From an uncultured archaeon (GTDB lineage: Archaea > Asgardarchaeota > Lokiarchaeia > Sigyniarchaeales > SOKP01): a DNA stretch of 40,952 bases. The notes under the pieces are model-generated. The model was not told where the DNA came from, searched no databases, and saw nothing but the letters and a program-made list of their open reading frames with translations. The DNA is taken from positions 5,422 to 46,373 of the forward strand of contig CAYUTF010000010.1 in NCBI GenBank assembly GCA_964447495.1, in the 5' to 3' direction. Both the position numbers and the translations under genes were made by a program. Numbering within the stretch: position 1 is the first letter of the stretch; each line of letters opens with the position of its first letter. Below are positions 2,899 through 37,787 of the stretch, piece by piece.

Positions 2899-4002
2899 AT
2901 GATTGGAATTATCAATATTGGATTATATATCTCAATTGTTATTATTACTATAGTTTATTTAATAATTATTAGAGAAAATTACGAACCAGATGCTACCTTT
3001 CTAACCATCCTTATATTGTATTTTCTCAATGAAATTTTTGCTTTCATATTTTTCAATTTATCACAAGAGATATTATTTACTCAGGAGGTGGCATTGACAT
3101 TATGGTATTTCTCTATTATTACAGGGTTGATTTCTGTTGGATTATGGTCTTCATTTCTTACGATTGAGTTAAATAAAAAAAGTAAAGTTCGCTATCTTCC
3201 TGCCCTGACATATATTTTGATATTAGGGATTATCTTCAGTTTAATGTTAAGTCCAAATTTGTTTTTAGTAATCCAATCTATGTCCTATTACTCGTATTTA
3301 TTTTTAAATGATTTATTAATATATTCAATTTATATCTACTATTGCATAATAATTACGTTTTCTTTAATATCACAGATTATAAGTTTCAAAAATTATAGTG
3401 ATAGAGGATTGGGTGTGTTGTTTAACTATTTTGGTTTTTTTTTAATCATCCGCACCATTATATATTCTCTCTTCTTGCTTTATCCTAGTATGATTCTAAG
3501 CTTATCATTTGATATATCCTATTTTACATGTCTAATTATGATGATCATTATTATAATTAAGAAACCTAACTTTTTTGTTGTTTTTACGAATAAAATCTAT
3601 GATTTTATCATATTTCATAAATCAGGTATCTTACTCTATTCTTATAATTTCCAAAAAAATATAGAAGTAAAAGACTCTCTTCTTAAAGGGAGTATCCTAA
3701 TTGGAATAAATCATATTCTTAATAATTTCTCAGATGTAGAAAATCAATTGGAATTAATAAAATTACGTGATAAAGGAGTTATTTTTCAGTTCAATAATGA
3801 TCTAGGGTATGCAACATTATTAATTGCGAAACACAGAAATGCAATATTAGAACGAGCAGTTAATAAATTTAATCAGGAGTTTTCTGAGAAATTTGAAAAC
3901 TATTTGGTCAATCTTAAAGGTTTAATTGACATATCTATTTTCTCTGATACAAAGAGTCTCATTAGTAGTATATTTAAGCGATATATTATAAATAATCAAT
4001 AA
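2899..4002 (+). CDS. 7TM membrane protein with C-terminal longin-like domain (paralog 1)
   Basis: Seven hydrophobic segments ending IIIIKKP, then IYDFIIFHKSGILLYSYNF and a bb-a-bbb-aa pattern. ATG 2899 preferred over TTG 2872. Confidence 0.75.
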   Translation: MIGIINIGLYISIVIITIVYLIIIRENYEPDATFLTILILYFLNEIFAFIFFNLSQEILFTQEVALTLWYFSIITGLISVGLWSSFLTIELNKKSKVRYLPALTYILILGIIFSLMLSPNLFLVIQSMSYYSYLFLNDLLIYSIYIYYCIIITFSLISQIISFKNYSDRGLGVLFNYFGFFLIIRTIIYSLFLLYPSMILSLSFDISYFTCLIMMIIIIIKKPNFFVVFTNKIYDFIIFHKSGILLYSYNFQKNIEVKDSLLKGSILIGINHILNNFSDVENQLELIKLRDKGVIFQFNNDLGYATLLIAKHRNAILERAVNKFNQEFSEKFENYLVNLKGLIDISIFSDTKSLISSIFKRYIINNQ

Positions 4003-4173
4003 ATCAGCGATATTAATTTAAAGTTAAGTAGTGCAATTTTAAAAAATTTATTTGAAGTAATACTTTTATATAAGAATATACTTTTAATTTTTAAAGAGGT
4101 TAAGCTAGTCGAGTGCAAACTGAAACTAAATACTTTAATAATAGATACATATAAAAGAATTTGAATAAAGATT

Positions 4174-5322
4174 ATGTTAAATCTTACTGGTTTATCTTTA
4201 ATAATTGGTTGTGTAATTGCCTTGGGTATATCAATAATATCTAGTATACTCCTTTTAAGAAATCGAACTAGCTATGGTACAGAATTGAATATTTATTTAA
4301 ATGTAGCAATAATTATTAATGGAGGAATAATATATTCTTCTTTTTTCGTATTTTCTCTTCTCTTCTACACATCTAAAGAGATAAACATTTTATTCTGGAA
4401 GATTTCGATAATTTCAGGGTTTCTCTCTTTAATTATCTACTTTATACTTTATTCGTTTTTCAAAGAATATAAGAAAGTACAAATTTTCCCGTTTTTATGT
4501 CTATCAATTCTCTTTGGATTTTTAATAGGAATCCTATTTATACCAAATTCTATTCAAATTTATATCGAATATACAGAACCTATCCCCTTTTTCATCGGAG
4601 ATCCTTCATTAGTTAATTATTATTTTAGTTTTTATGCTAGCCTTATTATTATCACTTTTCAATTATTAATCGCTTCTTATTTATTATATATCTCCTTTAT
4701 AATCGTTTTCAATTCAAAAAATAAAGCTGAGAGTTGGCCTTTATTTATAAATCCTTTTATTTTTTCGCTTCCTATTGCTATGTATATTGCATATATCTTA
4801 TTACGTGAACCAATTTATCGCGAATTGCATATTATTTTAGTTTGGATAACTCAACTTGCATTTGATATTATCCTAATTAAAAAACCTGAAATGTTTGTTA
4901 TTTTACCAAATAAAATATTTGCAGTAAATATCTATCATAAATCCGGAATTTTGCTCTATTCCTATAAATTTGCGAAAGAAGCGGAATTTCAGGACGATTC
5001 AAAGATATGGGGGAATATTTTAATTGGGCTGAACTACATTTTAAGTGAATTTACAGAAAAAGAGGATAAAATAGAATTGATTCAAACAAGGAATTCGGAT
5101 ATTATTGTTAAATATGAAAATAAAGGGGGATATGCCGTAATGATAAGTACAAATAAAAAAAATTCGATTGTAGAAAATTTATCTTACAAATTTTCTGAAG
5201 AATTTGGGAAAAGATATAGTGAAGAATTAAATGAAATTCAAGATCTTAACAAGATTATTAATATCTCAGAATTTGAAGATACGAAATCTCTTATTGAAAA
5301 AACCTTTCAACTCTATCTTTAA
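4174..5322 (+). CDS. 7TM membrane protein with C-terminal longin-like domain (paralog 2)
   Basis: Same architecture; shares KKP, HKSGILLYSY, ILIG(I/L)N(H/Y)IL and FxDTKSLI with the upstream gene. Confidence 0.75.
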   Translation: MLNLTGLSLIIGCVIALGISIISSILLLRNRTSYGTELNIYLNVAIIINGGIIYSSFFVFSLLFYTSKEINILFWKISIISGFLSLIIYFILYSFFKEYKKVQIFPFLCLSILFGFLIGILFIPNSIQIYIEYTEPIPFFIGDPSLVNYYFSFYASLIIITFQLLIASYLLYISFIIVFNSKNKAESWPLFINPFIFSLPIAMYIAYILLREPIYRELHIILVWITQLAFDIILIKKPEMFVILPNKIFAVNIYHKSGILLYSYKFAKEAEFQDDSKIWGNILIGLNYILSEFTEKEDKIELIQTRNSDIIVKYENKGGYAVMISTNKKNSIVENLSYKFSEEFGKRYSEELNEIQDLNKIINISEFEDTKSLIEKTFQLYL

Positions 5323-5431
5323 ACCAAAAACTAAAGCTGAAAACTGGTCTCTAAAAACATTATATTTGAAGAAATATTGGATATAGTAAGATCAAATTAA
5401 TTAAAATCAAGTTAAAAAAGATGATGAAGAA

Positions 5432-5971
5432 TTGGGATTAAATTATTGTCCAAAATGTGGAAGCAAATTAGAAGAAAATACATCTAAATGTGCATATTGT
5501 GGTTATGATACTTCAGAAAGAAAAAACCAGCAACAAAATTCTGTTAGATTTAGTGATTCTAATATAGTATATGCTGATTTTTTCCAAAGAGCAATTGCAT
5601 GGTTTATTGATATGATCATTGTTATTATTATCTCATCACCACTCTCTTTGTTTCTAAACTTCGGAAGCTTGCTTCTTTTAACAAATGTATATAACTTTGC
5701 CATCGGATTTTGTTATTTTTGGCTCCTAGAAACGTTTAATAATGGGCAAACTCTTGGTAAGGTTATATTGAAAATAAGGACTGTAAATGATGAGAATTTT
5801 GAAGTCTCCAATCCAACAATGTATGCAATTAACAATCTTTCAAAAGCTTCGGGGTTTTTACTATTGGATATTATATTAGGAATTTTATTATACTATTCAG
5901 AACAGCAATCGTACAGAAAGATATTGAGAGTTACACAACATCTCGCTCATGTTGTAGTGGTGAAAGTTTAA
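5432..5971 (+). CDS. Zinc-ribbon + RDD family membrane protein
   Basis: CPKCG...CAYCG; YADFFQRAIAWFID and GQTLGKVILKIRTV RDD motifs. Confidence 0.85.
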   Translation: MGLNYCPKCGSKLEENTSKCAYCGYDTSERKNQQQNSVRFSDSNIVYADFFQRAIAWFIDMIIVIIISSPLSLFLNFGSLLLLTNVYNFAIGFCYFWLLETFNNGQTLGKVILKIRTVNDENFEVSNPTMYAINNLSKASGFLLLDIILGILLYYSEQQSYRKILRVTQHLAHVVVVKV

Positions 5972-6076: not shown

Positions 6077-6292
6077 ATGATGGAAAATTTAGCACTTCAA
6101 GATAAAGAATGGGCACATGATTGGAAAATCATCAAACAAATTTTTGAAGCCATTGATAGTCTTAAAAACTTGTTCGAACAATTAGACGTTTCTTATTTAA
6201 GAGAGATTGAACAGAATTTGCTAATCTTAAATCTTGAAAAATACACTTGGAGTCTCCAAAATTACATAATTGAAAAGTATTCAAAACCCTGA
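6077..6292 (+). CDS. Small helical hypothetical protein
   Basis: 71-aa ORF with protein-like composition, preceded by a TATA-like TTTATATA. Confidence 0.6.
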   Translation: MMENLALQDKEWAHDWKIIKQIFEAIDSLKNLFEQLDVSYLREIEQNLLILNLEKYTWSLQNYIIEKYSKP

Positions 6293-6445: not shown

Positions 6446-7798
6446 ATGAGTACTCGATTTAGTAAAGGTCAAAAATGGGCTTTTGGAGCGGGATCATTTG
6501 CTCAATGGTTTATAAATACCGCGTTCAATATTTGGGTGTTCACTTATTACTTTACCGTTGTTGGGTTAAGTATAAATTGGTATGTGCTTGCTGCAGTTAT
6601 CTGGACATTATGGAATGCCTTTAATGATCCATTCATAGGTTATTTATCTGATCGTACACATACCAGATGGGGGCGCCGAAAACCCTATATCATGATTGGA
6701 ACAATTCCCATGTTAATCTTAGAGATAATATTATGGCTTCCTCCAACAGGATCTCAATTTGCAATATTTGTATATTTATTGATTATGCTAATTTGTTATG
6801 ACACATTCTATACGATGATAGCGCTTCCCTTTGATAGTTTATTTCCTGAGCTCTATACCACTGTACAGGAAAGATCCGAAGTAAATACAATTAAGCAATT
6901 ACTCGCAGTTGTAGGATTATTAGCGGCAGCACTAGTCCCAGGCTTTATTGTTGATAGTAACACTACCTCATATTTATTAAATGGGATAGTAACGTCGATA
7001 ATCGTCGGATTTTCATTGATAATAGCACTAAAATGGGGCGTTAAGGAAAGAAAGGAATTTAAATTGGATTATCAACAATCGTTTAAATTTTTTGAAGGAG
7101 TAAAGTATTCATTAAAAAATAAAGGTTTTATACTTTATACTCTGATATTCTTTCTCTATGAATATGTTATCTTACTTCTTGCAACCCTGGTTCAAATATT
7201 CGGAAGACAAATTTTACATGCATCACCATTTCAAACTTCTATTATTATGGGTATTATGTATATTATGGGTGCAGTTTCAGTAGTTCTCTGGAGATGGTTG
7301 GATGTCAAAATTGGTTCGAGAAAAGGTTTAGCTCTATCCGTAGTCGCATATTTTCTAGCCTCACTCCCTCTAATGTTTGTTGATGTATATGAAATCGCAG
7401 TTGTGATCGCTATTTTTATGGGGATTGGATTTGGTGGTATGATCTATTTTATTTATTTGATTATTGCAGATGTTATTGATGAGGATGAATTAAAGTCGGG
7501 TGTAAGACATGAAGGAACATTTTTTGGGGTGACTAACTTTTTCATGAGGCTTTCAATGATTCTATCCATAGTGACCATTGGTTTAGTATTTGTACAAAGC
7601 GATTGGGAAGTTTATGACCCATTAGTTGATGTGACTTTTGGACTGCGATTGTTATTTATCGTTATTCCTGGTATTGCATTAGGAGTTTTACTGATATGCT
7701 TATATTTCTATCCTTTCCCAAAATCAAAAGTAGAAGGAATTAAGGCAAAATTAATAGAACTCCACAAAGAAAAGGAAAAGAGAGTTAACTCTAATTAA
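6446..7798 (+). CDS. MFS transporter, glycoside-pentoside-hexuronide (MelB-like) family
   Basis: About 12 TMs; NDPFIGYLSDRTHTRWGRRKPY and ADVIDEDELKSGVRHEG motifs. Confidence 0.9.
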   Translation: MSTRFSKGQKWAFGAGSFAQWFINTAFNIWVFTYYFTVVGLSINWYVLAAVIWTLWNAFNDPFIGYLSDRTHTRWGRRKPYIMIGTIPMLILEIILWLPPTGSQFAIFVYLLIMLICYDTFYTMIALPFDSLFPELYTTVQERSEVNTIKQLLAVVGLLAAALVPGFIVDSNTTSYLLNGIVTSIIVGFSLIIALKWGVKERKEFKLDYQQSFKFFEGVKYSLKNKGFILYTLIFFLYEYVILLLATLVQIFGRQILHASPFQTSIIMGIMYIMGAVSVVLWRWLDVKIGSRKGLALSVVAYFLASLPLMFVDVYEIAVVIAIFMGIGFGGMIYFIYLIIADVIDEDELKSGVRHEGTFFGVTNFFMRLSMILSIVTIGLVFVQSDWEVYDPLVDVTFGLRLLFIVIPGIALGVLLICLYFYPFPKSKVEGIKAKLIELHKEKEKRVNSN

Positions 7799-7984
7799 AT
7801 TTATTATTTTTATTTTTGTTCAATTCTTAAATTGATCTCATTAGCTATTTATGTGGTTTCACCAGTAATTTAATAATTTAATAATTATCTTTTCAATTCT
7901 AAAATATTTTAAATTAAATTTTTATATTGAATTTTCCTTCATATAACTTATACAAATTATATGTAAAAAATAATGTGATTAATA

Positions 7985-8218
7985 ATGGGATGGACACCAC
8001 CAAGTAAATTTACAGTTTTGATTTCCTTTCTTTTGATGGCATTTGGGGTTTTTATTTTACTCGACCAAAATGTGCTACTTTATACCCCGTCTATATTACC
8101 TACTATTCAGATAATATCCACTATTAGCTCTCATGCAAATTGGATAATAATAGCGATAATAGTATTCTTTTTCTCTTGGTTTCTCTTTTTCCTTGGAGTT
8201 TGGTTTAAAGGGATGTAA
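7985..8218 (+). CDS. Small two-TM membrane protein
   Basis: 77 aa with two hydrophobic helices; T-rich tract downstream. Confidence 0.65.
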   Translation: MGWTPPSKFTVLISFLLMAFGVFILLDQNVLLYTPSILPTIQIISTISSHANWIIIAIIVFFFSWFLFFLGVWFKGM

Positions 8219-8280
8219 AATTAAGTTTTATAAAATTTTTTTTCTTTTTTTGATTCTCATCCATTAATAGATTAAAAAGA

Positions 8281-9555
8281 TTATAATTGATTAAGAGCTT
8301 GCTCTAAATCTTTAATTAAATCCTCAGGATCTTCTAACCCGATTGAAAATCTAAAATGTGTATCCGAAATACCCATCAATCTCTTCTCCCAAGATGCAAG
8401 ATCGATCCCCGTCATTAATGAAGTATACTCAATTAAAGAGGTGGTATCTCCTAAAGAGACTCCTACTTTAATAACCTTTAAGAGATCTATGAATTTATAA
8501 CTATCTTCTGCGGATTGGAGTTCGAATCCCATCATCCCTCCAAAATCGGACATTTGTTTTTTAGCGATAAGATGACTCGGATGCGATTCTAAGCCAGGAT
8601 ATATCACAGTTGCTACTTTAGGGTGTGTTTCTAAGTATTGAGCAATTTCCATTGCATTTTCACAATGTTTTTTCATACGTATACTTAACGTACGGCAACC
8701 CCGTAATATTAACCAAGCATTAAAGGGACTCATAACAGCACCTTCTAATTCTTGCCAGAAATAGCGAATATTTTGAATATCGTTTTTTGGTCCAATTATT
8801 ACGCCTCCGAGAGCATCGCCATGACCATTAATATATTTGGTGAGACTCTCTACGACTATATCTGCTCCTAATTCAAACGGTTTTTGTAATACGGGGGAGG
8901 CAAAAGTATTATCAACGATACATTTTCCTCCACTATTGTGAATTAAATTAGTACATTCGTGTATGTCAATTATATCAATCGAAGGATTAGCAGGTGTTTC
9001 TACAAAAATCAACTTTGTTTGGTCGTCTATAGCATTTTTAACTTGATCTAAGTCTCTCATATCAACTATCCTCGGTTCAATCCCCATCTGAGGATAAAGA
9101 TTCATAAATAAACGATAAGTTCCTGTGTATTGGTTTTTATGCATAACTATATTCGGTAATTGTTCGGGATGGGTTTGAGGAAGATATTTAAAAATTTTTT
9201 TTGGCTTTATGCGTTTTAATCTCTGCTGTAATACACTCGAACATGCTAAATGAACGGCTGCCATACCTGAAGCTACTGATATAGCTTCCTCTCCTCCATG
9301 TAACGTCGCTAACTTTTTATCCAAAGCATATAATGTTGGATTTTCAGTTCTAGAATAAAAATAATGATTCTTAAGCATCTCAGTTAAAGTTGGATATACA
9401 TACGATTTCGTAGCGTAAAGTGGTAATCGTAAGCTTGAGGGAGTTTCGGGATATGGATCCTCTCCTGCTCGAATTTGCTGCGTATCAAATTTTAATGTAT
9501 CCCATTTTTTTCTTAATTCTTTATTTATTTGATCTACTGTTTTTTTTTCTTTCAT
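8281..9555 (-). CDS. PLP-dependent Cys/Met metabolism enzyme (methionine gamma-lyase / cystathionine gamma-synthase family), divergent
   Basis: YSRTENPT, SGMAAV, ETPANP, DNTFASP, PLP lysine in SLTKYINGHGD, VSLGD, FRFSIGLE. Confidence 0.88.
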   Translation of the reverse strand: MKEKKTVDQINKELRKKWDTLKFDTQQIRAGEDPYPETPSSLRLPLYATKSYVYPTLTEMLKNHYFYSRTENPTLYALDKKLATLHGGEEAISVASGMAAVHLACSSVLQQRLKRIKPKKIFKYLPQTHPEQLPNIVMHKNQYTGTYRLFMNLYPQMGIEPRIVDMRDLDQVKNAIDDQTKLIFVETPANPSIDIIDIHECTNLIHNSGGKCIVDNTFASPVLQKPFELGADIVVESLTKYINGHGDALGGVIIGPKNDIQNIRYFWQELEGAVMSPFNAWLILRGCRTLSIRMKKHCENAMEIAQYLETHPKVATVIYPGLESHPSHLIAKKQMSDFGGMMGFELQSAEDSYKFIDLLKVIKVGVSLGDTTSLIEYTSLMTGIDLASWEKRLMGISDTHFRFSIGLEDPEDLIKDLEQALNQL

Positions 9556-9557
9556 AC

Positions 9558-11066
9558 TTATCCCTCCAGACCACTAATTCCTTTCACATCTCCTTCTTTA
9601 TCTAAACCTTCAGCTTTTCTAAAAAAATCCATTGTTCGTGAAGTAATTTCTTTAAAATAATCTTTTAACTTATTATCTACGTCGTTTGAAATCCCAGGTC
9701 CCTTTTGAGTTTCGAGGATTTTGTTAACTTTTTCTCGTGCTCTCACAATGATATCTTTTGAACCATTTCTCTTCCAAATCCCTCTTCTATCCCTATCCAT
9801 TAATTTGGGTACGAAGATTTCTTTTCTGGTATTTTTCGCTGTGTGTTTAAGCATTAAATAATTCTTTCCTTCTAATGCTACCCTTTTGATTTGTTCAATA
9901 GCAAGGGTTTCTTCATCTACATTTATTCCGTCTCTTCCTCTATTAACTATATCTATTAATTCGTCATCAATTACCAAGAGTTCTAGTGATTCTGCCAGTG
10001 ATGATTCATAAGTACCAGCACAGGTGATATAATTAATACCTGCATTCGCAGCAAAAGATAACGTCATAAATCTTTCAAACCCATTTTGAATATCAAAACA
10101 TTTTGACTCAGTTACCGCCCCTGGTCCACGTGATGGAATATTATAATAACGTGCTAATTGAGCTGCGCCTGCCGTTATTAATCCCGTTTCAATTGAACCC
10201 CATGCTACATTTCCAGTGGGAGGATCCATAGGGCAATTCATAGTTGAATAAAATACAGGTGCTCCGGGATTAATTAATTCGGTTAGTACGATGGATGAAA
10301 GAACTTCCATATTAGATTGAACCAATAATCCTGCCAAAGTCACTGGTGCGGTTGATCCAGCACTCGCAGCAGGTGCAATTATGGTTGGTTGTTTATATTT
10401 TGCAAAAATAAATAATCCATTTAATAAAATTTTAGTCATCATCAATGGACTTGTTGGATTGAAAAAACCTATTAATCTTGGTTTTTTGATTAATTCCTCC
10501 TCGCTTCCCACAATAATGAACGTAAGATTCATCATATCTTGGCTCGCAATCCTTCCATAACATCCAAGACCATATGGTTTTGAACTATTCATTGCCCATG
10601 CTCGAATAGTGTGATAATGGGTCTCTAAATAAGGTACATCATTGGGCCATACATCAACATGAGAACATCGAATGTTTTTGAGGCTATCCACTATTCTAAT
10701 CTGGGAAACATTATCGCTTAGAATTGTTTTTCTTATACCTTGCTTATGTTCGGGATCATAAATTTTGATCGGGGTCCCTACAGTAGCGAAATTTACATTT
10801 CTCGTATTTATTTCAAACTTATAAGTTCCATCAGAACCCCATAATGTAAATGAATCGGGAACCCTATTTAGTTGTTCTTTCACAAGACTTTCGGGGAATT
10901 TAACATAGTCACTTTTCTCATCAATATCTGCGCCATTCTCTTGTAATAACTTCTTTGCCTCAGGAGAATCAACTCTTACGCCAATACTTTCTAATAGGTC
11001 AAGGGTGTGATTATGGATTAATTCAATTTCATCTTGAGATAACACACTAATGCGATTTGTTTTCAT
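9558..11066 (-). CDS. MttB-superfamily corrinoid methyltransferase, non-pyrrolysine (copy 1)
   Basis: LSQDEIELIH N-terminus, AGSTAPVTLAG, NPGAPV, QLARYYNIPSRG...SK..D.QNGFE; no in-frame TAG. Confidence 0.9.
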   Translation of the reverse strand: MKTNRISVLSQDEIELIHNHTLDLLESIGVRVDSPEAKKLLQENGADIDEKSDYVKFPESLVKEQLNRVPDSFTLWGSDGTYKFEINTRNVNFATVGTPIKIYDPEHKQGIRKTILSDNVSQIRIVDSLKNIRCSHVDVWPNDVPYLETHYHTIRAWAMNSSKPYGLGCYGRIASQDMMNLTFIIVGSEEELIKKPRLIGFFNPTSPLMMTKILLNGLFIFAKYKQPTIIAPAASAGSTAPVTLAGLLVQSNMEVLSSIVLTELINPGAPVFYSTMNCPMDPPTGNVAWGSIETGLITAGAAQLARYYNIPSRGPGAVTESKCFDIQNGFERFMTLSFAANAGINYITCAGTYESSLAESLELLVIDDELIDIVNRGRDGINVDEETLAIEQIKRVALEGKNYLMLKHTAKNTRKEIFVPKLMDRDRRGIWKRNGSKDIIVRAREKVNKILETQKGPGISNDVDNKLKDYFKEITSRTMDFFRKAEGLDKEGDVKGISGLEG

Positions 11067-11243
11067 ATATAATTAATCCTCAACTTCTTGTTAGTAGTTT
11101 TATTTTTTATTAACAAGTTGAACAAGCTTCTTTATTTTAGTATTATTTACCCTTAGTTTATCTATTTTTTGAAAAACTTTTTTTGAAATTAATTGTTGTA
11201 TAAATTAAAATTTTATAGAAATTATTGGATAGAGAAACTTCAT

Positions 11244-11888
11244 ATGTCTATTGAAGAAAAAATGAAAAATCTCGTAGTTGAATGGGATGAGGATGGATTA
11301 AAAGAATTTTGTAGTTCACTTCTTGAACAAAAACGATCCTCAGCAGAAGAATTGTTGAAGATAATAGGCAGTATTATGAAATTTATTGGTGACCAATTTG
11401 AAAATGAAGAGATATTTCTTCCAGATTTAATTGGGGCTGCAAATGTAGTAAAAACTGTTATTGATGAGGTTTTAGACCCAGCAATTAGAGCTATAGGCGG
11501 TGAAAAAAATACTTTAGGAAAAGTAGTTATAGGAACAGTAGAAAGTGATGTCCATAGTATTGGCAAAGATTTAGTAGCTTCATTTCTTTTTTCCAACGGT
11601 TTTGAAGTATATAATTTAGGTGTTGAGGTGACTGCTGAAGAATTTATTAATAAAGCAGAAGAAGTGAGCGCTGATATTATTGGAATGTCCTCTTTATTAA
11701 CAATGTCAATGGATTTTCAAAAGCAAGTCATAGAAGAATTAATTAAAAGAGGTTTGAGAGATAAATACAAAGTAATCGTAGGAGGAGCTCCTACATCAGA
11801 GGAATGGGCTAAGCAGATAGGTGCTGACGCATGGGCTGATGATGCAATCGAGGCAATAGCCGCTATAAAAAAAATAATTAAAAATTAA
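11244..11888 (+). CDS. Methyltransferase cognate corrinoid protein (MttC/MtbC-like)
   Basis: FENEEIFLPDL cap domain; B12-binding DVHSIGK...SSLLT...VIVGG. ATG 11244 preferred over TTG 11193. Confidence 0.92.
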   Translation: MSIEEKMKNLVVEWDEDGLKEFCSSLLEQKRSSAEELLKIIGSIMKFIGDQFENEEIFLPDLIGAANVVKTVIDEVLDPAIRAIGGEKNTLGKVVIGTVESDVHSIGKDLVASFLFSNGFEVYNLGVEVTAEEFINKAEEVSADIIGMSSLLTMSMDFQKQVIEELIKRGLRDKYKVIVGGAPTSEEWAKQIGADAWADDAIEAIAAIKKIIKN

Positions 11889-11909
11889 AGGTAAAGATAT
11901 GAATTTTTT

Positions 11910-13439
11910 ATGAAATTAAAAAAAATAGATGTTTTTTCTCAAAATGAATTAGAAGAAATACACTCCGCATCTTTAGAATTATTAGCGAGTGTTGGAATGA
12001 AAGTGGATTCAGATAAAGCTAGAGCTATCTTACAACAAAATGGAGCAGAAGTAAACGAAGACACTCACTTTGTCAAATTTTCAGAATCATTAATCAAGGA
12101 GAAATTAAAATCTGTTCCGAGTTCTTTCACACTGCATGGTCCAGATGGGAAATTTAAAGCTACTGTGGATGTTAACCACACCGAATTTGCAACTATAGGT
12201 ACTCCGGTCAAAATCTATGACCCCGATCATGATAAAGGTGTAAGAAAAACGGTAATGGCAGACACTATAAATCAAATACGCATTGTGGATAGCTTAGAAA
12301 ATGTTATATGCTCTCATATTGATGTTTGGCCAAATGATATTAAATATACGGCAATTCATGCACATTGTATATATCAATGGGTTAAAAATACAAAAAAACC
12401 TTATGGTCTTGGCTGCCTTGGTAGATTAGCAAGTCAAGATATGATGAATTTGGCATCTTTAATCGTGGGAGGCGATGAGGAGTTGATTAAACACCCTCGC
12501 CTTGTAGGGTTTATGAATCCAACCTCTCCACTACATTTACCTCAATTGATGACAAATGGATTCGAAGTTTTTACAAAGTATAAACAACCAACTATTATAG
12601 CTCCAGAAGCGCTAGCGGGTACATCTTCCCCGGTGACCTTAGCGGGATTGATAACACAGACAAATGCGGAAATTCTTGGAAGCGTGGCTCTTTCACAGAT
12701 ATATAATCCAGGGGCACCTATATTTTATGGTACAGTATCACATATCACAGATATGAGAACAGGGAATTCTGCCATGGGCTCAGTTGAGATGGGCCTTATA
12801 ACTGCAGGAATTGCACAATTAGCCCGTTATTATAATATTCCTTCGAGAGGTCCTGGTTGTGGTTCAGATTCAAAAGTATTAGATTTGCAAAATGGATATG
12901 AACGAATGCAAACCCTAATGCTTGCAGCTCAAGCAGGTATCAATTATATCACCTGTGCTGGTACTTATGAAGCAACTTTAGTTGAAGCGTTAGAATTATT
13001 GGTAATTGATGATGACTTAATAGGGATGGTTAAACGTGCAATAGAAGGGATAACTGTCACGGAGGATACAATTGGAATAAATGTAATAAAGAAAGTTGCC
13101 ACTACAGAGCGAAAAGGAGTCAATTTTCTTGCCGAAAAGCATACAAAAGATCATATGAAGAATGAATTATACTTTCCAAAATTATCTGATAGAAATAGAA
13201 GGGCAACATGGTATAAAAAAGGCGCAAAAGATATCATAATTCGAGCAAGCGAGAAAGTCACAGAAATTTTACAATCGCACCAAGTAAATGATCTACCAAA
13301 AGAGCTTGAAGAAAAGTTGTTAAATTATATTAAAGAAGTAGAAGCTCGTACATTTGATGAATATAAGAAAGCAGAAGATCTTATGGTTGATAGTATTACT
13401 CTACCCGATGGGATTGAGATTAAAGACGAAAAAAAGTAA
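11910..13439 (+). CDS. MttB-superfamily corrinoid methyltransferase, non-pyrrolysine (copy 2)
   Basis: Close paralog of 9558-11066 (FATxGTPxKIYDP, GINYITCAGTYE, QLARYYNIPSRGPG); no in-frame TAG. Confidence 0.9.
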   Translation: MKLKKIDVFSQNELEEIHSASLELLASVGMKVDSDKARAILQQNGAEVNEDTHFVKFSESLIKEKLKSVPSSFTLHGPDGKFKATVDVNHTEFATIGTPVKIYDPDHDKGVRKTVMADTINQIRIVDSLENVICSHIDVWPNDIKYTAIHAHCIYQWVKNTKKPYGLGCLGRLASQDMMNLASLIVGGDEELIKHPRLVGFMNPTSPLHLPQLMTNGFEVFTKYKQPTIIAPEALAGTSSPVTLAGLITQTNAEILGSVALSQIYNPGAPIFYGTVSHITDMRTGNSAMGSVEMGLITAGIAQLARYYNIPSRGPGCGSDSKVLDLQNGYERMQTLMLAAQAGINYITCAGTYEATLVEALELLVIDDDLIGMVKRAIEGITVTEDTIGINVIKKVATTERKGVNFLAEKHTKDHMKNELYFPKLSDRNRRATWYKKGAKDIIIRASEKVTEILQSHQVNDLPKELEEKLLNYIKEVEARTFDEYKKAEDLMVDSITLPDGIEIKDEKK

Positions 13440-19674: not shown

Positions 19675-20430
19675 ATGAGTGAAGTACCCCTATTGGACGC
19701 GAAAACCTCATTAAAAAAGATGGTCTCTTTAATTGTAGATATCAGTGGTTTGACCAGTGATTATATTCCAAAATTAAGAGCACAACCAGAGCGCATTATA
19801 GAAACCATCGAGAAGTTTGAAGTTGAAAAAACTGCATTACTTAAAAAAATCGATGCAAACAATGAAGAAATAAATTCATTAAAAAATCAGATTTCTCAAA
19901 ACCAGCGAGATATTCAAAAATTTGAGGAACATAATAAAGAATTACAAGTAAAGAAACAAGTTTTTCTTGATACTATTCAACAAAAACAGACAGAGATCGA
20001 AGATACTCACACAACTATTCGTATAAAGAAAGAGGAATTTGATAATCGAGCTGAAAGATTAAAAAATCTAAATGATAAAAATATTGAACTTTCTCGGGAA
20101 ATTGACATTTTCGAAAAAAAGATAAGGGATTTAGAAAAAGAGCTTGAAAGTACTTTCTATAAGAAAGAGAGATATGTAAAATCTTACGAAAATAGAGTGG
20201 CGGCAATGAAAATCTTGATTACTAAAAAATATATTAATTCCTCATTATATCAATTTATTCGAGCCCTACAACCAGGAAATGCATTAGATTTAAAAAACAT
20301 ACTACTTGCTATCGATATGAGGGAAGATCAAGCCATACGAATAATAAAAAAAATGATTGAAGAGAAAGCTCCGATTGAATTGGATCAAGACGCCGGAACC
20401 ATACTTCTAAAAGAGGAGGTTGACTTTTAA
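19675..20430 (+). CDS. Coiled-coil protein with C-terminal winged-helix-like domain (A)
   Basis: Long heptad region, then a helix-turn-helix-wing pattern (LDLKNILLAIDMREDQAIRIIKKMIEE...IELD...TILL); AGGAG upstream. Confidence 0.7.
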   Translation: MSEVPLLDAKTSLKKMVSLIVDISGLTSDYIPKLRAQPERIIETIEKFEVEKTALLKKIDANNEEINSLKNQISQNQRDIQKFEEHNKELQVKKQVFLDTIQQKQTEIEDTHTTIRIKKEEFDNRAERLKNLNDKNIELSREIDIFEKKIRDLEKELESTFYKKERYVKSYENRVAAMKILITKKYINSSLYQFIRALQPGNALDLKNILLAIDMREDQAIRIIKKMIEEKAPIELDQDAGTILLKEEVDF

Positions 20431-21167
20431 TGAGTTCAGAATTAAAAGAGATTCTTACGCTTATTGAACAATTAGAAACATATTTTGATGAGTATATTCA
20501 ATCATTTCAAAAAAATAGTCAATCTGCCTTACAAAATTTAAGTAATACCTGGAAAATGATTAAACTAGAGCAAGATGGGGTCAATAAATATGAAGAGACG
20601 AACATAAATCAAAACTCAGAAATAACTGAATTAAAAATAAAGTTGGATGACCTATCTAAAAAAGTTAATAACTTAAAGTCAATAAACAATGAACTTATAA
20701 CTAAGAATACAGAGTTAAACAGTACTGTTGAACGATTGAATAATGAGTTAACGAAACCACTAATGGAATTAGAAGAAACTCTCTTAAAATTAAGCGATAT
20801 CAATCAAAAGATCATTACAAAGGAAAAAGAAAATACTGAATTGGAACAAAAAAAAATTGATAATGAAAATCGAGAATCACAATTGAAAACATTATATACT
20901 ATAGAGAAAATGGAAGATCTCGATCAAAAAATGCAAAAATTGAAAAGGAATAACTATTTCACATCCTTCATAATCGAAAATTCTGAAGAAGAAATACCCG
21001 AAGTAGATATTATTGCCACAATCATGAACCAAGGATCCTGTGATCTTGATGAACTCAAGAAATTGTTAGACGTTCCACCAATTATGGCTGTTAGAACTAT
21101 TAAACAGCTCGCTGTGAAAGGAATCATAAAATTAGATGAAGATACTAACATCGTAACTCTACCTTAG
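20430..21167 (+). CDS. Coiled-coil protein with C-terminal winged-helix domain (B)
   Basis: TAATG overlap and GAGGAGGT SD; heptads, then GSCDLDELKKLLDVPPIMAVRTIKQLAVKGIIKLD. Confidence 0.72.
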   Translation: MSSELKEILTLIEQLETYFDEYIQSFQKNSQSALQNLSNTWKMIKLEQDGVNKYEETNINQNSEITELKIKLDDLSKKVNNLKSINNELITKNTELNSTVERLNNELTKPLMELEETLLKLSDINQKIITKEKENTELEQKKIDNENRESQLKTLYTIEKMEDLDQKMQKLKRNNYFTSFIIENSEEEIPEVDIIATIMNQGSCDLDELKKLLDVPPIMAVRTIKQLAVKGIIKLDEDTNIVTLP

Positions 21168-28585: not shown

Positions 28586-29458
28586 ATGGTTAAAGCTCTT
28601 GATATCATTGAGGATATCCAGCAAAAATATAAAATCATTGGTAGAGCCGAAGAATTAGATAAAATCATTATCTCGCACTCCGCGGGGAAAAACATCTTAG
28701 TCCAAGGACCAGTTGGTGTAGGAAAAACAACAATTGCTCGAGCTGTTTCATCGTTTTTTGATTCACATTTTTATCGAATAGATTGTAATGAAGAAACCTT
28801 ATCTCATAATCTTGTTGGATATTGGGACCCTCCATTAGTAATTTCTAAGGGATATGTGGAAGACTCATACGTTTATGGTCCCTTACCGTTAGCAATGCTG
28901 AATGGAGGGTGTTTATTCATAAATGAAATTAATCGAATGCCAGAAAGTACACAAAATTCACTCCTTACTTCACTAGATGAAGGAATTTTAGATATACCTA
29001 AACTAAAGACTATTCATGCCAAAGAAAATTTTTTTGTAATTGCTACCCAAAATCCAGCCGCACATATTGGAGTTTCCGTTCTTGGTGAGGCTCTCATGGA
29101 TAGATTTATTTGGATACAGTTAGATTATCAAAATTCCGAAGAAGAGATTCAAATAATAAAACAAGAAGCCAATTTTAATGATTCAGATGATAACAAGATT
29201 GCGAAATTATGTCAGCAAATCGTTCAATTTACCAGAGAAAGTACTTCAATTCGCAGAGGGAGTTCTATTAGGGGGGCTATTGATTTAGCTGATCTAATTC
29301 TAAAGTCAGAGAACCAAAATAGCTCTAAAAATTGGGTTGATAAAGCTATTATGGCTCTTTATAATAAGATAGAATTAGAAGATGGAGTAGCAAAATCAAA
29401 AACAGAAATAATTACAAATATAGTTCTTTCGGTGTTAAATAAAGCGGATTTTCAATAA
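28586..29458 (+). CDS. MoxR-family AAA+ ATPase
   Basis: IIGR, Walker A GPVGVGKT, Walker B variant LFINEINR, ATQNP, EALMDRF, GSSIRG. Confidence 0.92.
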   Translation: MVKALDIIEDIQQKYKIIGRAEELDKIIISHSAGKNILVQGPVGVGKTTIARAVSSFFDSHFYRIDCNEETLSHNLVGYWDPPLVISKGYVEDSYVYGPLPLAMLNGGCLFINEINRMPESTQNSLLTSLDEGILDIPKLKTIHAKENFFVIATQNPAAHIGVSVLGEALMDRFIWIQLDYQNSEEEIQIIKQEANFNDSDDNKIAKLCQQIVQFTRESTSIRRGSSIRGAIDLADLILKSENQNSSKNWVDKAIMALYNKIELEDGVAKSKTEIITNIVLSVLNKADFQ

Positions 29459-30570
29459 TCGATGATTTCTCTCCAGAATTTTCAGAAGAGATTGAGAAGA
29501 AACGATTACATGTAAGACTTACGGAGCGCATACCAGATAATGAAATTTTACGGTATGAAATAATTAGAAAAAAAAAGAAAAAACCCGATTACTATTATCA
29601 TTTAGCCAATACATTAGATTATAAACAAATAAAAGAATTAACCTATTTATCCATCCAATACAAAAACCTTGAAGCTATAATGGGCTTACTTAAATCGAAT
29701 GTCTATGCAGCTACCGATGCTCTGGATTGTGATGAAGGAGTTAATTTTTTTGCTGAAAAAGCTAAAGAGTCGGCAGCATCAATGGCTGAAGTTTATTTTT
29801 TTATCAGACGTCCAATTTCTGAGAAATATCGATATATTTTTCGCAGGTTAGCAAGACAAAATATTCTTAGGATGTCTTTAAAGATCACAAGTAAAGGAAT
29901 CAGGGGAAATTACAAGAAAACCGTTCCATTTTATCAAATTGGAATGCCAGAATTTGATTTAGATGAGACAATCCAGCATAATCCACTCAAAGTATATAGC
30001 AAGACTCTAACCTACAAGGATATTTATGGAATAAAAAGAAAGCGACAGAAAAGGAAAATAGCTTTAGTGCTTGACACGAGTGGGAGTATGTATGGAAGAC
30101 TTTTATTGAATGCTGCTCTTACAACATCAGTTTTAGCCTATAACATGGAAAAGGAAGATTATGCGATAGTTTTATTTAATTCTACGGCAATGGTTCTAAA
30201 GAAAATTGATGAAAAAAAACCAGTAATCTCAATTATTGATGAGATACTGGATTCTGAAGCTGTTGGATTTACAAATATATCAATAGGCTTAGAAAAGGGA
30301 TTAGCTGAATTAAATAAAGTAAAGCAAAAAACCAGAAATAAATTTGGGATTTTAATTTCTGATGGAAACTATAACCGGGGAGAAAATCCTTTAGAACTAG
30401 CCAAAATGTATCCTAAATTACATGTAATCGGGATGCCAGCTGAAAATGATGCTGATAGAGGTATAGATACATGCAGAGAGCTGGCAAATGCCGGAAGAGG
30501 CAAATTTTATGCGGTAAATGATTTTAAAGAGATTCCAAGAGCCTTGATTGAATTATTATCTCAAACATAA
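29455..30570 (+). CDS. von Willebrand factor A domain protein (MoxR partner); true start uncertain
   Basis: MIDAS DTSGS, FTNI, ISDG. The frame is open 75 codons upstream of ATG 29680, back to an ATA at 29455 overlapping the MoxR stop. Confidence 0.85.
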   Translation: MIDDFSPEFSEEIEKKRLHVRLTERIPDNEILRYEIIRKKKKKPDYYYHLANTLDYKQIKELTYLSIQYKNLEAIMGLLKSNVYAATDALDCDEGVNFFAEKAKESAASMAEVYFFIRRPISEKYRYIFRRLARQNILRMSLKITSKGIRGNYKKTVPFYQIGMPEFDLDETIQHNPLKVYSKTLTYKDIYGIKRKRQKRKIALVLDTSGSMYGRLLLNAALTTSVLAYNMEKEDYAIVLFNSTAMVLKKIDEKKPVISIIDEILDSEAVGFTNISIGLEKGLAELNKVKQKTRNKFGILISDGNYNRGENPLELAKMYPKLHVIGMPAENDADRGIDTCRELANAGRGKFYAVNDFKEIPRALIELLSQT

Positions 30571-37187: not shown

Positions 37188-37787
37188 ATGGAGTATGTCA
37201 AAGTTAAGAAAAAAAGAGTGTATATTGATAATGGATATTTATATTTAGAAAGTTTTAATATTGATAAAATTGCAGATATTAAAAGATTGAAAAAATATCC
37301 TAATTTAAGGGAACTCTATTTAGAAAAAAATAACATTAAATCAATTGAAAACTTAGATCATTTAGTTAAATTAAAGAAATTGCACTTAGAAGCTAATAAA
37401 ATTACAGATATTAAAAATTTAGACGCATTAAAACAGTTAGAAGAACTTGAATTAGGAGGAAACCAAATTTCTGTAATAAAGGGGCTGAATCGTCTAAAAA
37501 ACCTCAAATCATTGTTAATAAATAATAATAGGATAAAAAAAGTAGAAGGATTAGAGAACTTAACCAATCTGGAATACTTAGACCTAAATACTAATTTGAT
37601 AGAAAATATAAATGGCTTAGAAAAGTTAATAAATCTTAAGAAATTGAACCTTTCGAATAATCAAATAAAAGATTTTAACATACTATCTAATTTGATTAAT
37701 TTGGAAGTTCTAGATATAACTGGAAATCCTACTACAAACATTGAATTTCAAAGAATACTCAAAAACCTGAAGAGAATCGAATATTAG
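37188..37787 (+). CDS. Leucine-rich repeat protein (SDS22-like 22-aa repeats)
   Basis: About 7 repeats of LxxLxLxxNxIxxIxxLxxLx. Confidence 0.92.
   Translation: MEYVKVKKKRVYIDNGYLYLESFNIDKIADIKRLKKYPNLRELYLEKNNIKSIENLDHLVKLKKLHLEANKITDIKNLDALKQLEELELGGNQISVIKGLNRLKNLKSLLINNNRIKKVEGLENLTNLEYLDLNTNLIENINGLEKLINLKKLNLSNNQIKDFNILSNLINLEVLDITGNPTTNIEFQRILKNLKRIEY

Follow-up and report, generated by a model that had tools for sequence, protein, structure and literature searches.

Tandem seven-helix membrane proteins with predicted cytoplasmic longin domains in a Lokiarchaeial genome, a possible paired platform

Results and discussion

Two adjacent genes for 7TM-longin proteins

The DNA considered here is a stretch of 40,952 nucleotides from an uncultured archaeon (Lokiarchaeia; Sigyniarchaeales; SOKP01), positions 5,422–46,373 of contig CAYUTF010000010.1 in assembly GCA_964447495.1; we call this whole stretch the window and count positions from its first nucleotide. 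Within its AT-rich sequence (26–35% GC) lie two adjacent genes, here named A and B, whose products each join seven transmembrane (TM) helices to a tail with a predicted longin fold. An earlier note, made from the sequence alone, had picked out this pair and read it as a heterodimeric membrane sensor that regulates small GTPases. The features of the pair are as follows:

2899..4002, + strand: gene A, 7TM-longin protein of 367 aa, an open reading frame (ORF) with an ATG start; first gene of the tandem
2899..3558, + strand: membrane module of A, seven TM helices with the N-terminus outside (hydropathy averaged over 40 orthologs)
3559..3567, + strand: KKP exit from TM7 of A (K221 K222 P223; translation and BLASTP alignment, IIKKP in the ortholog consensus)
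3574..3999, + strand: predicted cytoplasmic longin domain of A, residues ~226–367 (44.8% identity to the modelled tail of B; tail profile E 3.7e-46)
4003..4173, no strand: AT-rich spacer between A and B, 171 bp (sequence read)
4174..5322, + strand: gene B, 7TM-longin protein of 382 aa, an ORF; second gene of the tandem
4174..4878, + strand: membrane module of B, seven TM helices (Kyte–Doolittle segments, lysine plus arginine counts, TM7 peak)
4879..4887, + strand: KKP exit from TM7 of B (K236 K237 P238; translation and BLASTP alignment)
4915..5319, + strand: predicted cytoplasmic longin domain of B (AF2 model, Foldseek and VIA)

Judged by their sequences, A and B are diverged tandem paralogs, with 33% identity over 329 columns in BLASTP (E 1e-40). 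The likeness is concentrated in the tails (65 of 145 positions, 44.8%) as against the TM parts (58 of 199, 29.1%), and the same imbalance separates each protein from its orthologs (tail versus TM part, 52% versus 27% for A and 62% versus 44% for B). Gene A has an alternative TTG start at 2872, and the ortholog consensus begins like the ATG form. The spacer varies from 16 to 221 bp across 19 relatives, as measured from ORF calls. A bacterial-type scan found 0 terminator-like sites in the spacer region, and a sigma-70-type promoter scan returned 33 sites versus 29.7 expected, its consensus being bacterial and uninformative for an archaeal host. The read datasets listed for this region comprise 23 of DNA, mostly salt-marsh metagenomes, and none of RNA.

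The membrane modules were traced by hydropathy. In A the TM cores fall at residues ~1–21, 33–52, 67–85, 101–118, 136–159, 177–192 and 201–219 (40 orthologs), and in B the helices span residues ~1–31, 42–65, 70–97, 100–131, 149–182, 190–210 and 217–236, with seven Kyte–Doolittle segments of mean at least 1.6. The last helix of B is less hydrophobic and fell under the length filter in the 64-row ortholog average, in which it nevertheless peaks at 2.16 versus a maximum of 1.09 in the soluble tail. A single-sequence AlphaFold2 (AF2) model of full-length B also has seven long helices, but at a low confidence (predicted local distance difference test, pLDDT, 42.5) that makes it unusable for the fold. 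The loops after TM1, 3, 5 and 7 are far richer in lysine plus arginine than the other loops, with means of 11.07 versus 2.23 in A (40 orthologs) and 8.75 versus 2.65 in B (64 orthologs), and this excess places the N-terminus outside and the tail in the cytoplasm. The motif I-K-K-P closes TM7 in both proteins, its proline (P238 in B) being almost invariant among 64 orthologs, and conserved polar residues lie near TM7 of B (W224, R216).

The predicted longin fold of the tail

The cytoplasmic tails, ~130–145 aa long in A and B, open with I-x-H-K-S-G-I-L-L-Y-S-Y (A238–249, B253–264), and S242, L245, L246, K263 and G264 are among the residues invariant in 40 A orthologs. A 29-row alignment of tails from differing architectures served both as our tail profile (A1) and as input for AF2, which modelled the tail of B with a pLDDT of 80.2 and a predicted TM-score (pTM) of 0.76. 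The predicted elements are b1 248–255, b2 260–265, a1 276–294, b3 302–304, b4 309–315, b5 320–326, a2 331–354 and a3 364–377 (in model numbering, strands 16–23 and 28–33, helix 44–62, strands 70–72, 77–83 and 88–94, and helices 99–122 and 132–145), an order of b-b-a-b-b-b-a-a, with no N-terminal helix, by which the longin fold is recognized.

Structure searches with this model lead to the same family. Foldseek returned 28 PDB chains at E ≤ 1e-3, all of them longin or roadblock-type, the best being AP-2 sigma, TRAPP Bet5/Trs23 and Mon1-Ccz1. In the VIA structure search, which is independent of Foldseek, the best 26 rows are all longin-fold proteins (Z 12.7–10.1, 111–129 residues aligned), headed by VAMP7 (4afi_B, Z 12.7), Sec22 (3egd_C, 12.7) and the SRX domain (6frk_y, 12.6) and including AP mu and sigma, Bet5, synbindin, CPLANE and Mon1-Ccz1. 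The longin of the Loki Roadblock-Longin protein, a solved Lokiarchaeota structure (8yqg_B) of the same phylum and same fold as the A and B tails, scores Z 9.9. Roadblock domains (Roadblock-LC7, PF03259, including MglB) share a related alpha–beta sandwich that dimerizes and binds a small GTPase, and they match less well, over a shorter range and at Z of at most 10.0 (MglB 3t1r_A and MP1 3cpt_A, both 10.0). They differ in having an N-terminal helix and no extra C-terminal helices, whereas the B tail begins with two strands and ends in helices, and their matches span only model residues 11–122.

Sequence comparison points the same way at lower levels. The best PDB sequences for profile A1 are Trs23 (3cue_A, E 0.0013) and Bet5 (7ea3_D, E 0.0014). 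The commonest weak Pfam match is Intu_longin_1 (9 of 29 and 11 of 89 members, best E 9.6e-5), followed by Sybindin (5 of 29 and 5 of 89, best E 0.0043), and none of the gathering cut-offs for Sybindin, Intu_longin_1 or Fuz_longin_1 was exceeded in the scores seen for these 29 and 89 relatives. B itself reaches 15.2 bits against Intu_longin_1 (cut-off 23.7), and A has no longin match in Pfam. On the modelled structure, then, the C-terminal domain of A and B has a longin fold and is not of the PAS/GAF type. Neither of these domain types is represented in the VIA top 50 or the Foldseek rows listed.

Taken together, an architecture of a seven-helix bundle (N-terminus out, C-terminus in), a KKP linker and a cytoplasmic longin domain is close to certain for both proteins. 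The earlier note had described just this: two diverged paralogs in tandem, each with seven helices, a KKP linker, a cytoplasmic C-terminus and a longin-like domain of bb-a-bbb-aa pattern that starts I-x-HKSGILLYSY, with the domains more alike than the TM parts, and all of it was borne out.

Age and conservation of the tandem

Homologs of B number 342 at E ≤ 1e-3, every one unnamed or ‘hypothetical’, and the source labels on homologs of A and B are Promethearchaeota or Lokiarchaeota. A locus search with an ortholog alignment (A4) gave 110 relatives whose record titles are mainly Promethearchaeota or Promethearchaeia. One contig (L107), titled as a Nanopelagicaceae bacterium, carries a B ortholog at 49% identity and is probably a mis-binned Asgard contig. 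Of 301 genomes sampled across the phylum, 154 gave a match to the tail, and within our GTDB family the figure was 66 of 68 genomes; with 342 matches and so nearly complete a presence in the family, the pattern of A and B lies far beyond chance.

The earlier note had named conservation of the tandem as one check on its reading, and the tandem is indeed conserved. Among the regions of 20 relatives (11.7–18 kb each), 19 carry an A-like gene first and a B-like gene second, adjacent and on the same strand, and one (G144) carries a single copy. In a maximum-likelihood tree of 52 rows, all first genes form one clade (support 95/87), all second genes another (87/96), and both group together against eight homologs of other GTDB families (98/99). 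These two clades imply a single duplication close to the family’s base, both copies having been retained since. Outside the family, a single member was found within the flanks of 17 of 19 fetched loci; the exceptions are a tandem pair (L035) and a TPR-longin gene accompanied by a second member (L040).

Further duplicates were seen in other genomes. One relative has three 7TM-longin genes in a row (L048, G291:C20:13000-21867), and the separate tandem pair of locus L035 (2357-4731) belongs to a distant family (f7). The row of three and the distant pair indicate that tandem duplication of the 7TM-longin architecture recurs.

The longin tail as a portable module

The tail belongs to a large family, with 5348 clusters (at 50% identity) matching profile A1 at E ≤ 1e-3 and 2062 at 1e-10. 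Among the best 149 clusters, 81 are proteins of 330–419 aa, of which a crude count gives seven TM helices to 44 and six to eight to 77, and another 24 are proteins of 520–659 aa with 9–14 TM helices, bar one with a single TM helix. The N-termini of the longer proteins are MFS-like, in chosen examples mostly just below the Pfam cut-off; a longin protein encoded on another contig of the same genome (C70) passes it (MFS_1, 35.4 bits; cut-off 33.4). The same longin domain also terminates PAS-HisKA-HATPase kinases (P0199, P0202, P0208) and occurs in TPR proteins and in one protein in which an alpha/beta hydrolase follows the longin. In our genome 19 ORFs carry the domain (E ≤ 1e-3), one of them a stand-alone protein of 152 aa. 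This stand-alone longin (contig C59; L003:1471-1929) is very similar to the tail that an MFS-like fusion of 544 aa carries in another genome of the genus (L043:1831-3465). Proteins seem to gain or lose this domain whole, and its presence on transporters, histidine kinases and TPR proteins alike is the behaviour of a portable module for output or adaptor functions.

Parts of this family have been described. An Asgard ‘NPRL2-like longin’ fused to two-component signalling domains is reported in sections of the preprint of Liu et al. (10.1101/2020.10.19.343400), and the PAS-HisKA-HATPase-longin proteins found here are probably those fusions; the NPR2 Pfam model matches nothing anywhere in our genome. 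We found no published description of a 7TM-longin fusion, and such proteins may have been catalogued earlier (Figure 5c or the supplements of Liu et al.; Klinger et al., 2016); neither ‘transmembrane’ nor ‘7TM’ appears in the main text of the Liu preprint, and ‘transmembrane’ is likewise absent from the available portion of PMC10933270.

Relationship of the membrane bundle to known families

The bundle itself is harder to place. Neither A nor B has a significant match in Pfam or NCBIfam. The earlier note had suggested a bundle of the HisKA_7TM type, and here the Pfam model (PF16927) matches neither A nor B (E ≤ 1, searched across our genome) and none of 25 genomes of the GTDB family (1e-5), while the model for 7TMR-DISM_7TM (PF07695) has no match in our genome at E ≤ 1 and one among 89 relatives (E 0.0076). 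When the TM parts of 81 representative 7TM-longin proteins were clustered (38, 19 and 7 members, plus smaller clusters), profile–profile comparison linked cluster 0, which holds our type, to cluster 1 (74.7% probability) and the latter to cluster 2 (95.1%). These alignments were in register, reversed controls stayed at or below 1.6%, and the 7TM-longin architecture thus looks old and not convergent.

What stands of the suggestion is a weak collinear likeness, seen when the cluster profiles were aligned by hhalign with 17 genuine Asgard HisKA_7TM regions. Our cluster gives a sub-threshold probability of 19% (E 1.2e-3, 207 collinear columns) and its sister clusters give 72% (191 columns, E 3.3e-5) and 27%, with reversed controls at or below 0.8%. 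Two further leads, and leads only, are an Atlas cluster of B-like proteins that is automatically named after HisKA_7TM and an Atlas feature match of 0.86 for the TM part. HisKA_7TM proteins resemble A and B in having an N-terminal seven-helix module followed by a cytoplasmic output domain; they differ in that the output of A and B is a longin domain and not a kinase, and none of the 17 genuine HisKA_7TM proteins carries a longin. Going by sequence likeness, we regard the bundle as weakly and distantly HisKA_7TM-like at best, which is a lead and not membership.

In helix number and orientation, A and B resemble receptors of the G-protein-coupled (GPCR) type, with seven TM helices, the N-terminus outside and the C-terminus inside. 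Such an arrangement is typical of receptor-type modules and is also found in many unrelated families. A different account makes a transporter or channel of the membrane part, with the longin tail as a domain for its regulation or for reporting, an arrangement (a ‘transceptor’) of which the MFS-longin fusions, including that of our own genome, would be examples. The polar residues conserved near TM7 of B would suit such a role. However, no transporter family matches A or B, the sole sequence lead for the bundle is the HisKA_7TM sensor module, and the arrangement of the helices is that of receptor-type modules, though not exclusively, so we consider a transporter or channel very unlikely. That the bundle senses a ligand is itself unlikely in our estimation; across the wider family it has hardly any conserved residues, as would suit a membrane anchor as well as a sensor.

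Pairing of the two tails

The earlier note proposed that A and B form a heterodimer, and longin biology offers close precedents. Paralogous longins typically heterodimerize, as in TRAPP and Mon1-Ccz1. In TRAPP, Bet5 and Trs23 (TRAPPC1/TRAPPC4; Sybindin, PF04099) are two paralogous longins that make one Rab platform, and their fold is that of the B tail model (VIA Z 11.7 for 3cue_C and 11.4 for synbindin 2zmv_A); they differ in being soluble, flanked by Bet3-type subunits and devoid of membrane helices, whereas A and B are integral membrane proteins. Mon1-Ccz1, Fuzzy-Inturned (CPLANE) and BLOC-3 (PF19031, PF19036) are likewise paralogous longin pairs, matched in Foldseek and VIA (5ldd, 9rs7, 7q3d). 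These are heterodimeric guanine nucleotide exchange factors (GEFs) for Rabs with three longins per protein, soluble and peripheral at membranes, in contrast to the one longin each and the integral membrane position of A and B.

We predicted the complex of the two tails (A 220–367 with B 234–382), using their own ortholog alignments and three controls. The interface score (ipSAE) was 0.33 (runs 0.33, 0.27 and 0.35) versus 0.02 for the best control, with at least 89% of contacts agreeing between runs and a partner pLDDT of at least 73. In calibration, 116 of 157 solved complexes attained the mark, as against 2 of 215 mismatched pairs; scores at or below 0.60 covered only 18 of the 157 solved complexes and both of the mismatches that passed. 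The score gives the heterodimer weak support, then, in a range where mismatches also pass and where, by this calibration, a prediction is wrong more often than right unless pairing was likely beforehand. It may also reflect likeness to longin heterodimers already solved, and it gives no separation of the heterodimer from homodimers.

It is plausible, instead, that A and B act separately, as homodimers or monomers, being paralogous sensors or anchors with differing inputs that are neighbours only through descent. Single-copy forms rule outside the family (17 of the 19 loci), and one relative within it (G144) makes do with one copy, so that a second paralog is dispensable; divergence is far greater in the TM parts than in the tails, as expected for a changed input specificity; the spacer leaves room for separate promoters; and the complex score is weak. 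Against this, 19 of 20 genomes have retained both products of a single old duplication in an unchanged order, the pairing score stands 0.31 above every control, and heterodimerization is the habit of paralogous longins. Weighing the two, we take pairing of the A and B tails to be evenly balanced between true and false, and separate action to be a minority possibility.

A small GTPase as possible partner of the tails

Longin and roadblock dimers are known as GTPase platforms (Levine, 2013, PMC3747258; Tran, 2024, PMC10933270; in the sections available of each), and candidate partners abound in our genome, which has 74 Ras-family matches, ~55 of them strong. Evidence for a link, at the level of the domain family, comes from homologs of our genome’s TPR-longin protein: in 13 of 30 loci their immediate same-strand neighbour is a Ras-like GTPase gene (11 downstream, 2 upstream), our own TPR-longin copy being among these. 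That copy (C20:37147-39099) lies ~100 bp upstream of a gene for a 182-aa Ras-like GTPase (C20:36497-37045), and the genome contains a further pair of this kind (C5:34224-35888 with C5:36043-36537). This TPR family has itself expanded greatly, to as many as 20 matches in a genome, and forms tandem arrays. One Arf-like GTPase of the genome has a weak match to the tail profile in its own tail.

A further GTPase gene lies just outside the window:

C10:3922-4848 of the same contig (locus L089), − strand: GTPase of 308 aa with a roadblock-like N-extension (Ras, 127.8 bits; Ras/Rab-like)

Its N-extension matches Robl_LC7 with E 0.075, and that of an ortholog with E 7.4e-4, both under the cut-off. The gene is ~3.5 kb upstream of A, ~0.6–1.5 kb before the window begins, and 13 of the 20 relatives retain it in their regions, some two genes away from the tandem.

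Several observations weigh against a GTPase as partner of A and B, and the coupling to small GTPases put forward by the earlier note stands as a hypothesis on mixed evidence. The nearby GTPase gene is on the opposite strand and parted from A by a DNA methylase and TrmO, and its synteny within one family may be plain inheritance. No GTPase gene stands in an operon with A or B. Around the longin loci of our genome there is no enrichment of GTPase genes, 2 of 17 independent loci being within 5 kb of a strong Ras match at a background of 11.4% (binomial tail 0.59), and a GTPase gene was found near distant family members in only 2 of 20 fetched loci (L035, L043). In the same vein, GTPase genes of MK-D1 are generally not in operons with longin genes, according to the available part of Tran (2024, PMC10933270). 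As for catalysis, the longin GTPase-activating proteins (GAPs; FLCN, NPRL2 and SMCR8/C9orf72) use, as described in accessible sections of PMC12290439, a GP motif just before strand 2 and a catalytic arginine finger. The GP motif is absent from the A and B tails, where the loop is H-K-S-G-I/V-L, and the tail alignments (29 rows, 40 A orthologs and 64 B orthologs) contain no invariant arginine, so that the known catalytic mechanism of longin GAPs is inapplicable to A and B. Were the partner a GTPase, A and B would more probably serve it as a scaffold or in an exchange-type role than as an arginine-finger GAP.

The tails might instead be membrane-tethered adaptors for a partner of another kind (a longin, roadblock, V4R, cytoskeletal or ESCRT protein), in the manner of the SNARE longins, whose regulatory role involves no contact with a GTPase. 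VAMP7, Sec22 and Ykt6 are among the top structural matches (Z 12.7–9.9), the 19 longin-family ORFs of the genome could pair with one another, longin roles beyond GTPase control are described in the part of Tran (2024, PMC10933270) available, and both the lack of a catalytic motif and the absence of nearby GTPase enrichment suit such adaptors. Yet TPR-longin cousins adjoin Ras-like GTPase genes in the 13 of 30 loci above, GTPase-longin fusions are documented in Asgard archaea (in portions of PMC10933270 and 10.1101/2020.10.19.343400), and A and B end with the longin domain, with no SNARE or coiled-coil segment after it. We judge a non-GTPase adaptor distinctly unlikely, and a small GTPase as the partner of the A and B tails doubtful.

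A putative platform beneath the membrane

Our tentative proposal, which we hold to be a little short of an even chance as a whole, is that A and B constitute a paired 7TM-longin platform that docks a cytoplasmic partner, most plausibly a Ras-superfamily GTPase. The two longin tails would pair beneath the membrane to give a longin–longin platform, as do Bet5-Trs23 in TRAPP, Mon1-Ccz1 and Fuzzy-Inturned; this platform would dock its partner, most plausibly one of the genome’s own Ras-superfamily GTPases; it would be of the scaffold or exchange-factor type and not an arginine-finger GAP; and the fast-evolving seven-helix bundle would serve as membrane anchor and possibly as sensory input.

Eukaryotes offer functional parallels in SLC38A9-Ragulator and GPR155/LYCHOS-GATOR1, in which a polytopic membrane protein signals to a GTPase regulator of roadblock or longin type. 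There, sensor and longin or roadblock are separate polypeptides, whereas in A and B they are one chain, and the comparison is one of functional analogy. In its strongest form, our proposal would make A and B a one-chain receptor-to-switch device, in which each protein supplies a sensory bundle and half of a longin platform and the A–B pair recruits or activates a Ras-superfamily GTPase on a signal from outside or from the membrane. We think this form improbable; if true, it would stand as a prokaryotic equivalent of GPCR-to-G-protein coupling and lysosomal sensor-to-Rag pathways, and a candidate origin of membrane-identity signalling that predates eukaryotic organelles.

Asgard genomes encode dozens of small GTPases together with longin and roadblock proteins, almost none of which, to our knowledge, has been assigned a partner or a membrane. 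A longin domain joined to a polytopic membrane protein fixes the location of one such platform, and A and B supply two short soluble tails suited to expression and GTPase screening. Should a GTPase partner be found, the origin of membrane-localized GTPase signalling becomes directly testable; should none be found, the expansion of Asgard longins serves some other purpose. For the present, A and B are a variant of the Asgard longin proteins that is of interest for eukaryogenesis and not yet a mechanism, and the GTPase-coupled heterodimeric receptor is a hypothesis. To it the present analysis adds a tree with a single duplication, a fold result that sets the tail against roadblocks, a census of architectures, a profile test for HisKA_7TM, a pairing score and two tests of the GTPase link, with opposed outcomes.

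Neighbouring genes

The genes that flank A and B are housekeeping-like and likewise syntenic (counts are of 21 regions):

258-2165, − strand: Eco57I/TaqI-type DNA methylase, with no obvious restriction partner in the window (19/21 regions)
2263-2769, + strand: TrmO (11/21 regions)
5432-5971, + strand: zinc-ribbon and RDD membrane protein, 110 bp downstream of B (13/21 regions)
6077-6292, after the RDD protein: unannotated protein of 71 aa (10/21 regions)

Further downstream, at 6446-13439, an MFS_2 transporter, a Cys/Met-metabolism pyridoxal phosphate enzyme, two MttB-family methyltransferases and a corrinoid-binding protein are grouped in a cluster that is syntenic in several relatives. Both methyltransferases are full-length and have no in-frame stop, and the cluster looks like one for methyl transfer of the methylated-amine or betaine type. 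At 19675-21167 lies a 251-aa coiled-coil protein with weak crescentin/tropomyosin likeness, and after it, with no gap, a 245-aa protein that ends in a MarR-type winged helix. The window also encodes a MoxR-type AAA ATPase with a VWA protein (28586-30570) and a 199-aa leucine-rich-repeat protein (37188-37787).

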